Shown here: positions 8,144-12,755 of the stretch, piece by piece
Numbering within the stretch: position 1 is the first letter of the stretch
How the letters are laid out: each line of letters opens with the position of its first letter
IMG/VR virus record: IMGVR_UViG_3300031565_010272
Length of the DNA: 13,045 nt
Strand: one strand, 5' to 3'
Source of the DNA: a virus
The notes under the pieces: generated by a model
Seen by the model: only the letters and a program-made list of their open reading frames with translations
Databases searched by the model: none
Told to the model about the DNA's origin: nothing
Position numbers and translations under genes: made by a program

Positions 8144-10270
8144 TTACACCACCACTGTGTAGTCGAACGCCCCCGCCAACTGCTTCTCGTGGGTGATCAC
8201 GATCAGCTGCATGCCCGTACTGTGCGCATACTTCCTGACCGAGTCGAGGATGTCCAACACTGAGCTGATGTGGTCGTCGTCGAGCATGTTCGTCGGCTCG
8301 TCGAGAACCATGAAGCCCAGGTTGCGTGTGAACAGACTGTAGACCGCGAACCTGAACGCGATGCCAAGCATCACCTTCTGTCCGCCGCTCAGCCGCTCCG
8401 CGCTGCGCTCGCCCGCCCCCACGGGGAAGCACACGACATCGAGATCGTCCTTGATCTGACAGGTGAACGGCACATTGAACAACATGAGGTAGTCGTTGAT
8501 GGCAACGTTGAGCACCTTCAGATATGCCTGCGTGACCATACGCGGCAGACAGTCACGATGCAGCACTGCCCGCGCCTGCTCGCACAGTTCCTTGTACTTG
8601 CGGCGCTCGCTCAGGTTCTTCGCCTGACCCTGTAGCGTGCTCAGCTCTGCGAGCGTGCGCGCCCGTAGCTCATGAAGCAATCCCAACTTGCCGCCCAACT
8701 CAGCGAACGCTGCCGTCAACTGCTCAGCAACCGACAACTGCCGCAACGCCTCTTCGTAGTGCGTACGCAGCAAGCCCTGCGGCTGCTCGCTCTCCAGCGC
8801 GGCTAACTGAGCCGTGAGCGCCTTGAGTTCGCCTTGCGATGCCGCGACCTGCGCCTGCAGTGCATTGACCTTCGGCGCGCGCTCGTCGATCGCCTTCTTG
8901 AGCCGATCGAACTCAGTGACCTGCGCTTCCAAGGCTGCGAGGTTGTCGACCTGCACCTGCGGCGCCTCGCCCATACGCGACAGCGTGCTGCGCAACGTAG
9001 CCGCACGCGTCGCCGCGTCTTCCTGCTTCTCAACCAGCGACTGCACAGCGAACCTGTACTTCTCCAGTTCACCGCTCGCCCTGCCGATCAACGACTCCAC
9101 CTGGACAAGGTTCTCCTGCTGCTCTTGTAGCGTGGCGCGCGCCGCCTCAACAGCCTCAGCTGCGTTCGGCCAGTCGGTACCACACGTAGGGCACGTGGAG
9201 TTGCCGCTCTCAAACGCCTTAATGAACGTCTTGGTATTGGCCAACTCCGCAGCTGCGTCGGCCGCCTGCTTCTTCGCTGTCTCGACATGCTCCGGCGTGA
9301 CTGCTGGTACTGTCGGCGGCGGCGTCTCCAACACAAAAGTCGCCTCCTGCAGCTCCTTCTCGAACGCCGCCCGCGACGTACTGATCTGGCGTGCTGCCGT
9401 TACGTTGGCCAGCTTCTGCTTCGCCTCATCAGCCGCCACACGGTTGGCTTCCATTGCATCGATCAACCGCTGCAGTTCGTCTGAGAAGTGCGGAAGCTGT
9501 GCACCGCCGATAGCCCGCTGGAGTTTGGTCGCCCGTTCCTGCAGCGCCTGTATCTCCTGCGCGCGCTTGAGCGCAAGCTCGTATGCGTCCTTGATCGATT
9601 GCGCCGCAGTTCGATCGATGAGCTTGAGCTGAGTCTCGGCTTCCCCCTTCTCGTCGTTGAACTTCCGAAGATCGGGATCAATCTCCTCGGAGATACGCTT
9701 CTCCAGCTCTGCGATCCGTTCATCGATCGGATCTGTGGAGATCGTAGCGATCTCCTTCTGCAGCAGCTCGCGAATCTTCTCCGCCGATTCAGTCCCGAAC
9801 AGCCCCTGGAACTCCTTCGCGCGTTCGGCTGGCCGCTTGAACAAGATCTTCTCGATCTCGCCCTGCATGACGAAGACGACATCCTCGATCGTCTTCTTCG
9901 TGACACCAGCGATCTTCAGCATCTCGGCGTTGACTTCACTGACGCTCTTGTGCTTCGTGTTACCGAACGCCATGTTGGCTCGCGCCGTTGTGATGTAGCG
10001 CTTCACCGAACCTTCGATACCTGCTTGCTCGAAGAACCACTCGACGAAACCAGTCTCCTTCGCCTCCGCCGCCTGCCAGTTCAGATCGTCAGCCTTGCCG
10101 CCAGCGTTCCCCGACTCGCCGAGTATGGCAAACCGAATTGCTTTGATGGCGTTGCTCTTGCCGCGACCGTTGCCGCCGAGGATCCCAAGAATATTGACCC
10201 CCGGCGGAAAATCGATCGTCAGCTCTCTGTGCTGGCAGAAGTTCTTCGCCACCAGTCTACGTGTACGCAT
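8144..10270 (-). CDS. Rad50/SbcC-family ABC ATPase (708 aa) with zinc hook
   Basis: Walker A GILGGNGRGKSN at the N-terminus. A long central coiled coil (Q/E/A/L-rich) carries CPTCG, the zinc-hook CXXC. The C-terminus has the ABC signature LSGGQK, Walker B FMVLDEPT, and H-loop VITHE. RBS GGAGGTG is upstream. Confidence 0.9.
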   Translation of the reverse strand: MRTRRLVAKNFCQHRELTIDFPPGVNILGILGGNGRGKSNAIKAIRFAILGESGNAGGKADDLNWQAAEAKETGFVEWFFEQAGIEGSVKRYITTARANMAFGNTKHKSVSEVNAEMLKIAGVTKKTIEDVVFVMQGEIEKILFKRPAERAKEFQGLFGTESAEKIRELLQKEIATISTDPIDERIAELEKRISEEIDPDLRKFNDEKGEAETQLKLIDRTAAQSIKDAYELALKRAQEIQALQERATKLQRAIGGAQLPHFSDELQRLIDAMEANRVAADEAKQKLANVTAARQISTSRAAFEKELQEATFVLETPPPTVPAVTPEHVETAKKQAADAAAELANTKTFIKAFESGNSTCPTCGTDWPNAAEAVEAARATLQEQQENLVQVESLIGRASGELEKYRFAVQSLVEKQEDAATRAATLRSTLSRMGEAPQVQVDNLAALEAQVTEFDRLKKAIDERAPKVNALQAQVAASQGELKALTAQLAALESEQPQGLLRTHYEEALRQLSVAEQLTAAFAELGGKLGLLHELRARTLAELSTLQGQAKNLSERRKYKELCEQARAVLHRDCLPRMVTQAYLKVLNVAINDYLMLFNVPFTCQIKDDLDVVCFPVGAGERSAERLSGGQKVMLGIAFRFAVYSLFTRNLGFMVLDEPTNMLDDDHISSVLDILDSVRKYAHSTGMQLIVITHEKQLAGAFDYTVVV

Positions 10271-10294
10271 TGCACCTCCGCGTTGGTTGCGAGG

Positions 10295-11223: not shown

Positions 11224-11697
11224 TCAGAATGCGCCAGCGTCGTGGTGTACGATAAGTAACGCCCACCAGCGCTGGACTAACTCCCGTGCGCGTAAATTGA
11301 TCATGCTGTCTTCGCCCACAAACGCACTGCGGCCGGGCCAAAATGCGTCAGAGATGCGATACACCCGACAACCCTCCACGGCGCCACCATAGAAGTTTGA
11401 CAAGGGCGACGCCCAAATGATGTACAACTCGCAGTCGCTCGGTTCGTCTAGGCTATTCATCATCGAGAATGTCGAGAGCCGTGGTCGCTCTCCGCAAACA
11501 CCGTCGATGATCACCGCCAACAGTCGCTCCATTGACTCCATGAACCTCCACATTTGTATACTGGGAAGTTGCCACATGTCCTGCCCCAGATCGTCTCTGA
11601 GTTCCTGATCCCACTGCGTTACGATCCGATCAGCAACTTCGGCGGAAGGGGTGTGCTCAGCAATCCCGCGTATGCGCGTTAGCGGTTCCCACACCAT
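11224..11697 (-). CDS. Hypothetical protein (157 aa) between the Mre11-like and Rad50-like genes
   Basis: Its ATG shares one nucleotide with the TGA stop of the Mre11-like gene (TGATG). Confidence 0.55.
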   Translation of the reverse strand: MVWEPLTRIRGIAEHTPSAEVADRIVTQWDQELRDDLGQDMWQLPSIQMWRFMESMERLLAVIIDGVCGERPRLSTFSMMNSLDEPSDCELYIIWASPLSNFYGGAVEGCRVYRISDAFWPGRSAFVGEDSMINLRARELVQRWWALLIVHHDAGAF

Positions 11698-12755
11698 CAG
11701 ACGCCCATCTCTTTCTTGATGTCTGTCAGCTCGTCCGCCGGCTTCTCCGCCTTGAGCAGCCGTAGAATGAAGCCATATGCGTCGGCAGCCTCAGTCGGAT
11801 CGACGGCCTGCGCCAGACACGACTCCAGACTCGTAGCTGCGACCGACCGCTCCTGTGTTGCTTCACCTTCAGCACTCACCTTCAGCGTCGCCGGCATGAA
11901 GAAGTGCTCGGCCTCCGCGCACGCCGTCTTGAGCGCGTCATACGCGCCAGGAACATCCGGCGCGAGCCTCACGTAGATGATTGATCGCGGGTACCGCTTG
12001 CTCTTCGGCTTGTAATGCCGGATCGTAGCGATGGCTGCAGTCAGCCCGTCCTCTGTCTCCACCATCAGGTCGACCACCTCACGTGTATCCATCTTCACTC
12101 GCTTGACCGCGAGCTTTGCGTCGACCGTGATGAAGCTCTTCTCAATCGGCTCGTCGATGGCGCACATGTGCGTCGAGCCGGGGTAGTAACAGCGCCCCGA
12201 GCTGACGGGCAGGTGGATGTCTCCCACAAGCCCCAGCTTCACGTTGTCGTGCAGCCACGCCTCGTCGAGATCCCACTTGTCGGCGAACCCCATGACGCCC
12301 TTGAGTGACTGGTGCAACACGACAATGTCGGCTCCCTCAATAGTCTTCAGCGTTTCCTGCACGTTCGCCGCCGACGTATTGTCGAAGCCTGCTATGTTGT
12401 AAGTCTTGTTCCCTACCGGCACCCCCACGAACGGCTGCGGGCCGAGCTGGATGATGCCCAAGTCCCCGTGGATCTGTGTCCACGGCGGATCACTGCGGTC
12501 GTGCTGTCCCTGAATAGCAAATATGGGGATACTGGCAGCGCGTAGCTTCCGCATCTGATCCATGAAGACCGCTACCGACGCACTGTCGGGATTCCGCCTG
12601 TCGAAGACGTCGCCGCCCAGTATGAGCGCGTCGGCCTTCTTCTTGAGACAGTAATCAACAATTTGCCGCAAGCTGCTGTACGAGTCACCACACAGTTCGG
12701 GCAGCGACGCCCACGTGTTTGGCGACAGGTGCAGATCGGCTGCAAATACTAACAT
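11697..12755 (-). CDS. Mre11/SbcD-family calcineurin-like phosphoesterase nuclease (352 aa)
   Basis: Phosphoesterase motifs are in order: FAADLHL (I), ILGGDVFDRRNP (II), GQHD (III), VVLHQS (IV), GDIHLP (V). RBS AAGGTGAGGGA is upstream. Confidence 0.9.
   Translation of the reverse strand: MLVFAADLHLSPNTWASLPELCGDSYSSLRQIVDYCLKKKADALILGGDVFDRRNPDSASVAVFMDQMRKLRAASIPIFAIQGQHDRSDPPWTQIHGDLGIIQLGPQPFVGVPVGNKTYNIAGFDNTSAANVQETLKTIEGADIVVLHQSLKGVMGFADKWDLDEAWLHDNVKLGLVGDIHLPVSSGRCYYPGSTHMCAIDEPIEKSFITVDAKLAVKRVKMDTREVVDLMVETEDGLTAAIATIRHYKPKSKRYPRSIIYVRLAPDVPGAYDALKTACAEAEHFFMPATLKVSAEGEATQERSVAATSLESCLAQAVDPTEAADAYGFILRLLKAEKPADELTDIKKEMGV

Follow-up and report, generated by a model that had tools for sequence, protein, structure and literature searches.

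The 13,045-nucleotide (nt) stretch of viral DNA analysed here, record IMGVR_UViG_3300031565_010272 of IMG/VR and hereafter called the window, carries genes for an Mre11-like nuclease and a Rad50-like ATPase which do not lie next to one another. Two genes stand between them and a third follows, in a dense minus-strand run of open reading frames (ORFs) in the order ORF79, Mre11, ORF157, ORF303, Rad50, ORF312. The Mre11-like gene occupies positions 11697-12755 (352 amino acids [aa]), ORF157 11224-11697, ORF303 10295-11206, the Rad50-like gene 8144-10270 (708 aa), and ORF312 7204-8142, its start being one base past the Rad50 stop. An earlier reading of this DNA, made without database searches (the sequence-only reading), had called the same five ORFs, and their coordinates, lengths and strand were all confirmed. 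The region is a recombination-nuclease operon of an uncultured large phage lineage; the question addressed below is what ORF157, ORF303 and ORF312 contribute to it.

The sequence-only reading took each of these genes to be start-stop coupled to its upstream neighbour. This is true of two junctions: Mre11 and ORF157 overlap by one base (TGATG, read from the sequence), and a single base separates the stop of Rad50 from the start of ORF312 (TAAcATG). The other two are spaced. ORF157 and ORF303 are 17 nt apart, with a Shine-Dalgarno site, AGGAGG (11215-11220, minus strand), 8 nt ahead of the ORF303 start codon, and the 24-nt spacer between ORF303 and Rad50 contains GGAGG (10275-10279, minus strand) 4 nt ahead of the Rad50 start codon. 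No promoter-like site emerged from a consensus scan, and the frequency of terminator-like sites did not exceed the expectation from shuffled sequence. Tight junctions without a terminator signal above that expectation fit a single transcription unit, without proving it.

At approximately 60% guanine plus cytosine (GC) the window holds many long spurious ORFs in its other frames, and one might ask whether the intervening ORFs are themselves chance products of GC-rich DNA. We regard the probability of this as practically negligible because homologues at the same position, with 23-36% amino acid identity, occur across many other contigs. These ORFs also possess conserved residues and Shine-Dalgarno sites or coupled starts, and they were called independently in public assemblies. 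As far as sequence can tell, the alignments show ORF157, ORF303 and ORF312 to be real, conserved protein-coding genes without a conserved catalytic signature. Comparison of the window with the near-identical strain L001 over the five genes (7204-12755) gave 11 non-synonymous and 0 synonymous changes, besides a 4-aa insertion or deletion in the linker of ORF303; this 11:0 bias is lopsided, and the numbers are too small for interpretation.

The identities proposed for the Mre11-like and Rad50-like proteins were borne out by Pfam and the PDB and, for Rad50, by PHROG as well. The Mre11-like protein matches Metallophos over residues 3-200 [PF00149, 9.6e-12, 46.2 bits against a cut-off of 21.5] and Mre11 in the PDB [8e-5], its nearest solved relatives being archaeal and bacterial Mre11. 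Its best NCBIfam model is NF041031, Mre11 of the Sulfolobus type [2e-17, 63 bits against a cut-off of 500], and TIGR00619 [sbcd] scored 53.5 bits against a cut-off of 77.65. Judged by these scores the window Mre11 belongs to a distant subfamily which does not reach the equivalog-level models.

Motifs I-V of the nuclease (DxH, GD, GNH, H, GHxH) are present in a family-specific form. Residues D7, H9, G48, D49, G83, H85, H148, G178, D179 and H181 are kept in 26-27 of 27 relatives; GQH(D/E) replaces GNH in motif III (residues 83-86, with Q in 23 of the 27), and GD(I/Y)H, that is, GDxH, replaces GHxH in motif V (residues 178-181, with D in all 27). Beyond R225 extends a C-terminal tail of about 128 aa, conserved and helical-looking, which is present in every clade.

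The Rad50-like protein was recognized by Pfam SMC_N [2.2e-19, 70.2 bits against a cut-off of 40] and AAA_23 [42 against 27], by the SbcC-like phrog_77 [4.8e-47, 162 bits], and by Rad50 in the PDB [3e-23], with head matches at residues 1-179 and 523-704. The best NCBIfam model was NF002244 [Rad50, 120 bits against a cut-off of 847]; Pfam SbcC_Walker_B gave 25 against a cut-off of 27. Invariant motifs include Walker A (G32-S39), the Q-loop (Q136), the signature (S628-G-G-Q631), Walker B (D657-E658) and the H-loop (H694). Between the head lobes lies a coiled coil of about 343 residues (approximately 180-522), at the apex of which is a putative zinc hook, CPTC (residues 360-363; 9182-9193, minus strand). 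The sequence-only reading had picked out this hook, and indeed C360-P-T-C363-G is invariant in 15 relatives (alignment A1), CxxC is retained across all clades, and the hook aligns with the CPTC of T4 gp46; the Pfam search gave no match to Rad50_zn_hook. The alignments therewith show, at the level of conserved residues, that both proteins retain all catalytic motifs and that Rad50 retains its hook. The same reading described this Rad50 as short, which is correct relative to cellular Rad50/SbcC but not relative to phages, since T4 gp46 has 560 aa.

Members of the clade to which the window belongs (the inner clade, described below) have in common a DDLNWxAA motif at Rad50 residues 61-72, with a 4-5 residue insertion that has no counterpart in the intermediate-clade loci L029-L041. 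It is a matter of speculation that this feature could serve as a docking site.

Neither ORF157 nor ORF303 matched anything in Pfam, PHROG, PADLOC or NCBIfam, and their family profiles had no match in the PDB. ORF157 is acidic and rich in tryptophan, with an isoelectric point (pI) of 4.7; its family (A3) has eight distinct members of about 25% pairwise identity and a median pI of 4.7. Nine residues are invariant in the alignment (W29, W50, E54, L59, P72, C89, E90, W95 and R114), which displays no recognisable catalytic motif. ORF303 has a pI of about 5.1-5.4. A GF(A/L)P motif is conserved at its N terminus, followed by a linker of low complexity, a helical middle part and, at the C terminus, the ORF157-like domain. 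A word-indexed protein search with ORF303 returned a single match, a 98%-identical variant, and the nine members of its family (A4) were traced via related loci. The ORF303 homologue of one relative (L024, 555-1181) is split across two frames, through a frameshift or an assembly error.

The acidic domain common to the two proteins measures about 110 aa, and corresponds to ORF157 residues 40-149 (11251-11580) and ORF303 residues 183-296 (10319-10660), both on the minus strand; in the latter P227, W258, G260 and R261 are invariant. Alignment of the A3 and A4 profiles over these segments with hhalign gave a probability of 83.8% [E 8e-6]. Weak hmmsearch cross-matches are reciprocal, the best out-of-family matches of each profile being members of the other family, and no hhalign control, whether against ORF312, Mre11 or Rad50 or against 35 further intervening ORFs, exceeded 1.2%. 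Because of the profile match, the cross-matches and the low controls we suggest that ORF303, in its C-terminal half, is probably a distant paralog of ORF157, an assessment based on eight plus nine sequences. Sharing a domain that arose in one clade, they therefore resemble the product of a tandem duplication. No kinship of ORF157 or ORF303 to other intervening ORFs of distant clades was found by hhalign. The idea that ORF157 is a split-off C-terminal domain of Mre11 was likewise rejected: the ORF157 and ORF303 profiles are unrelated to the Mre11 and Rad50 families, and the Mre11 tail has its full length whether or not a clade carries ORF157, which leaves nothing to have been split off.

ORF312 had no match in Pfam, PHROG (searched with the window protein), PADLOC or NCBIfam, and its family profile none in the PDB. 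A search of 1.84 billion proteins yielded 42 representatives of the family, almost every one 270-315 aa in length; a match of 3755 aa in the family search, being an RTX-type repeat protein, was discarded as a false positive. ORF312 is near-neutral (pI approximately 7). In an alignment of 49 sequences (A7) the sole invariant residue is D161, while G83, G84, H133, P134, W213, R241, W280, F289, P291, F294 and F295 are nearly invariant.

Residues 143-186 of ORF312 (7585-7716, minus strand) resemble the helix-hairpin-helix segment of IS110-type transposases. This region is matched by phrog_4285, annotated as "transposase," in four of 19 members [E 1.4e-4 to 1.8e-3], and hhalign against the IS621-type segment alone (IS621 residues ~199-240, checked against the PDB) gave 43-47% [E 2e-4]. 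The likeness is limited to some 37-40 residues. ORF312 was rejected as an IS110-type transposase, full-length IS110 giving 0.8% in hhalign; no DEDD set is conserved, D161 alone being invariant, and Pfam Transposase_20 was not matched. We take the helix-hairpin-helix-like motif as a weak hint of DNA binding and not as homology.

For comparison we gathered 64 loci, on which the five proteins were mapped by phmmer and iterated profiles, and the profiles were then run against stop-to-stop segments. A neighbour-joining tree of Rad50 defined the clades, which fall into three layers (outer, intermediate and inner). Metagenomic contigs of up to 29 kilobases (kb) carry identical or near-identical copies of the locus. 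Relatives sharing 37-46% identity in Rad50 come from contigs as long as 212 kb, among which is a 208-kb IMG/VR viral contig. There was no DNA match among 50,697 deposited phage genomes and no tblastn match in deposited phage genomes for Rad50, ORF157, ORF303, ORF312 or a distant ORF312 relative, and a scan of 185,579 species genomes turned up no relative of Rad50. We conclude that the source is an uncultured lineage of large (approximately 200 kb) phages because relatives lie on contigs of up to 212 kb, the window carries transfer RNA (tRNA) genes, and deposited genomes hold no match.

All three families are conserved, as some 45 related metagenomic loci attest. The sequence-only reading had thought these proteins specific to this phage; they prove instead to be clade-wide families. 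As a rule the Mre11 and Rad50 genes of the outer lineages overlap (-29 to +15 nt), and Rad50 is followed by an ORF312 homologue and then by a superfamily 2 (SF2) helicase with ResIII and Helicase_C domains, so that ORF312 adjoins a UvsW-like helicase. In the intermediate lineages unrelated ORFs separate Mre11 from Rad50, and ORF312 is often there. The inner clade, which includes the window, is monophyletic on the Rad50 tree, with Mre11 and Rad50 757-3620 nt apart.

It is to this one monophyletic clade that the ORF157 domain is confined. An ORF157 and/or ORF303 homologue adjoins Rad50 upstream in 12 of the 12 distinct inner-clade genomes in which the region is visible, at stop-to-start distances of -19 to +24 nt. 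Both genes are found in the window and in L019, L020, L024, L025 and L028, ORF157 only in L011, L012 and L026, and ORF303 only in L014, L016 and L021. The remaining inserts at the Mre11/Rad50 junction, such as unrelated ORFs and HNH/NUMOD4 homing endonucleases, vary from genome to genome. Within the clade, then, the intervening ORFs are neither absent nor out of synteny. ORF312 homologues, which extend beyond the clade, lie directly 3' of Rad50 and overlap or abut its stop; this holds for more than 20 loci, including those in which Mre11 and Rad50 overlap, and Rad50 identity among them falls to about 25%. By this distribution the ORF312 family is shown to be older than the ORF157 domain, insofar as occurrence on the Rad50 tree is a guide, and it adjoins Rad50 in many lineages. 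Within the inner clade it has been lost several times and persists in the window, L014 and L039 only.

A further small conserved ORF, ORF79 (12776-13015, minus strand; no Pfam or NCBIfam match), lies upstream of Mre11 in the window. In L012, L014, L019, L020, L025 and L028 its homologue is located between Mre11 and the ORF157 homologue. Since its position differs relative to Mre11, the stable block is ORF79-ORF157-ORF303-Rad50, and the six relatives indicate that Mre11 and ORF79 swapped order in the lineage of the window.

We tentatively favour the reading, to which we would give a probability of roughly 45%, that ORF157, ORF303 and ORF312 are non-catalytic accessory factors of the phage Mre11-Rad50 and are made together with Rad50. 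One transcript would yield the three proteins in step with Rad50 by way of overlapping or Shine-Dalgarno-linked starts, and they would then serve the Mre11-Rad50 machine in a non-catalytic capacity. ORF312, near-neutral and possibly helix-hairpin-helix-like, may be a DNA- or Rad50-associated third component. The acidic proteins with the ORF157 domain may be protein-binding regulators or adaptors, and ORF303 would use its flexible linker and conserved N-terminal peptide to tether a partner. Gene order in the relatives speaks for accessory factors in several ways: an ORF157-domain gene stands beside Rad50 throughout the inner clade where other inserts vary, the block with Rad50 has stayed intact despite the different place of Mre11 in the window, and ORF312 has kept to Rad50 across deep divergence, with the SF2 helicase next in the outer lineages. 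To these may be added the intact motifs of Mre11 and Rad50, the tight junctions, the monophyly of the clade with the ORF157 domain, the probable paralogy of ORF157 and ORF303, and the charges of the three proteins. The sequence-only reading had also proposed accessory subunits or regulators, a proposal which is plausible and unproven.

The main rival to this reading, although we think it somewhat unlikely, is that ORF157, ORF303 and perhaps ORF312 are unrelated early-gene passengers at an insertion-tolerant junction, kept there by inherited gene order. The overlap of Mre11 and Rad50 in most outer-clade loci implies that the insertions are derived; the same junction receives homing endonucleases and unrelated ORFs in relatives, and T4 has two unrelated small ORFs at the same place. 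Synteny is high in general, even for a lipoprotein-like ORF, and all three proteins evolve fast. Passengers would not be expected, on the other hand, to include one class of gene which alone among the variable inserts is kept in every inner-clade genome, always touching Rad50, nor to move as a unit relative to Mre11, nor to hold a coupled position after Rad50 over very deep divergence as ORF312 has done.

Rates of change bear on a second alternative. Identity to the window is 23-36% for ORF157, ORF303 and ORF312, versus 38-45% for Mre11 and Rad50; for ORF79 and for two further ORFs, ORF88 and ORF110, it is 37-56%. Phage inhibitors of host enzymes are known, lambda Gam and T7 gp5.9 both blocking RecBCD, and the ORF157-domain proteins might similarly block a host nuclease or defence, thereby protecting the ends that the phage Mre11-Rad50 processes. 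They evolve faster than their neighbours, lack a catalytic motif, have duplicated, vary in copy number across genomes and are restricted to one clade, all as an inhibitor might. Yet no similarity to a known inhibitor or PADLOC-related family was found, their charge is moderate, unlike that of a DNA mimic, and a strict place beside Rad50 would be left unexplained. We consider host-directed inhibitors quite improbable.

Several observations nevertheless weigh against accessory factors. The acidity of the ORF157-domain proteins (pI 4.2-5.4, net charge -3 to -17) suits inhibitors too, and the faster change of all three proteins also fits host-directed ones. Sister clades with overlapping Mre11 and Rad50 lack the ORF157 domain, and the inner clade has repeatedly lost ORF312; these proteins are therefore not needed for Mre11-Rad50 function as such. 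Purified T4 Mre11-Rad50, for its part, works without 46.1 and 46.2. As gene order is generally conserved, and the lipoprotein-like ORF88 and ORF110 are equally syntenic, synteny alone is weak evidence. Single-sequence AlphaFold produced unusable models both of ORF157 [predicted local distance difference test, pLDDT, 40] and of ORF312 [pLDDT 32].

A bolder version of the accessory-factor reading, and to our minds a clearly unlikely one, would make the ORF157-domain proteins and ORF312 true extra subunits of the viral Mre11-Rad50 complex. ORF312 would then be an ancient phage-specific third subunit aiding the engagement of DNA. The acidic ORF157 domain, having been duplicated, would dock on Rad50 as a regulator peculiar to the clade, and its place before Rad50 would parallel that of LmuC before LmuB and of the SbcD C-terminal domain before SbcC. 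If true, this would be an independent example of Mre11-Rad50 machines gaining specificity factors.

Several other features of the window and of its relatives may be recorded. ORF88 (6875-7141, minus strand), which opens with a lipoprotein-like signal (MRSILLVAAFCVASAGC), is conserved downstream of Rad50/ORF312 together with its partner ORF110 (6556-6888, minus strand); the pair, overlapping by 14 nt and without a Pfam match, is kept there in more than 15 loci. Further along the minus strand (1062-3821) the shoulder domain of Major Vault Protein (MVP) [4.7e-25] and a vault repeat [1.2e-7] are matched by an ORF of 919 aa, which recurs on the related contig L004. According to a 2023 preprint, a search of NCBI viral proteins found MVP homologues in two phages only, both from the human gut. 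Nine tRNA genes (Ile, two Met, Cys, Trp, three Ser and Lys) are scattered amid small ORFs at 144-6231, minus strand.

HNH/NUMOD4 inserts and an Endonuclease VII gene are located at 8928-9320 and 12187-12813 of L011 and 5047-5469 of L012; in both loci homing-endonuclease genes come directly after Mre11, and in one of the two the Endonuclease VII gene comes after Rad50. Sugar-nucleotide genes lie upstream of the Mre11-Rad50 module in L014 (163-3571) and L050 (2532-3995). They resemble those of ADP-heptose synthesis (SIS, HAD/PNK3P, and PfkB plus cytidylyltransferase-like).

Mre11-Rad50 is universal, and its partners (Nbs1/Xrs2, CtIP, NurA/HerA, LmuC) vary by lineage and decide how the complex acts. 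The first comparison to be made is with Lamassu, in which LmuC is small, fast-evolving, a sequence orphan and encoded just upstream of LmuB; the system has been proposed to derive from SbcCD, LmuC from the SbcD C-terminal domain, and its long forms keep CxxC (PMC12663957). The window is similar in having an SMC/Rad50-like ATPase with shortened coiled coils and a small orphan gene just upstream, and its Rad50 matches PADLOC models for LmuB [2e-36] and mad3 [1.5e-36]. One could accordingly imagine a Lamassu-like module with Mre11 acting as effector, the Rad50-like protein as LmuB and a protein with the ORF157 domain in the LmuC-like role of specificity factor. This is very improbable. No PADLOC model matches Mre11, ORF157, ORF303 or ORF312, no LmuA or LmuC is found among the neighbours, and SbcC/Rad50 profiles do equally well or better [phrog_77 162 bits, archaeal Rad50 120, LmuB 124]. 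The window differs further in that its Mre11 is complete, C-terminal tail included, and the surroundings are those of a phage replication and recombination region; we do not regard it as a member of the system.

The archaeal herA-mre11-rad50-nurA operon also combines Mre11, Rad50 and extra partner genes, and in it nurA follows rad50 much as ORF312 follows Rad50 in the window. The top-ranked NCBIfam models for the window Mre11 and Rad50 are moreover of archaeal type, at scores far under the equivalog cut-offs. Pfam searches of the window neighbours, however, found no HerA or NurA domain, and ORF312, unlike NurA, has one invariant acidic residue, D161, without a nuclease-like acidic set. The resemblance to eukaryotic Mre11-Rad50-Nbs1/Xrs2 is by analogy only, no homology having been found in the sequence and profile searches made here. 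What can be compared is the idea of a third subunit that is non-catalytic, evolves fast, is restricted to a lineage and has disordered regions and short motifs for binding (PMC12343972).

A close parallel is T4, through which phage Mre11-Rad50 has become a main biochemical model. The sequence-only reading had been reminded of T4 genes 46 and 47, and in layout the analogy is exact: gp47, 46.2, 46.1 and gp46 are encoded on one strand with stops and starts all overlapping, the 560-aa gp46 is a compact Rad50 with a CPTC hook, and homing endonuclease genes lie in the vicinity. Since T4 shows the same architecture, a split Mre11-Rad50 operon is not new. The inserts themselves are different. Those of T4 (46.1 of 68 aa and 46.2 of 87 aa) are far smaller than ORF157 and ORF303, which are probably paralogous to one another, and hhalign revealed no similarity of the ORF157 family to 46.2 [0.3%] or 46.1 [0.2%]. 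T4 gp47 has GNHD where the window Mre11 has GQHD and GDxH; and what follows Rad50 is the 62-aa 45.2 in T4 and the conserved ORF312, of about 300 aa, in the window.

The layout, then, is known from T4. The three protein families are new, and so are the findings that the inserts are probably paralogs confined to a single clade, that they form a conserved block with Rad50, and that ORF312 belongs to a broader family whose genes are coupled to those of phage Rad50. We know of no operon-encoded, phage-specific partner of Mre11-Rad50. Should ORF312 or the ORF157 domain bind the complex, they would be small, tractable regulators of a minimal Mre11-Rad50 machine; should they be passengers, the locus would be another phage operon with inserted ORFans, like that of T4.

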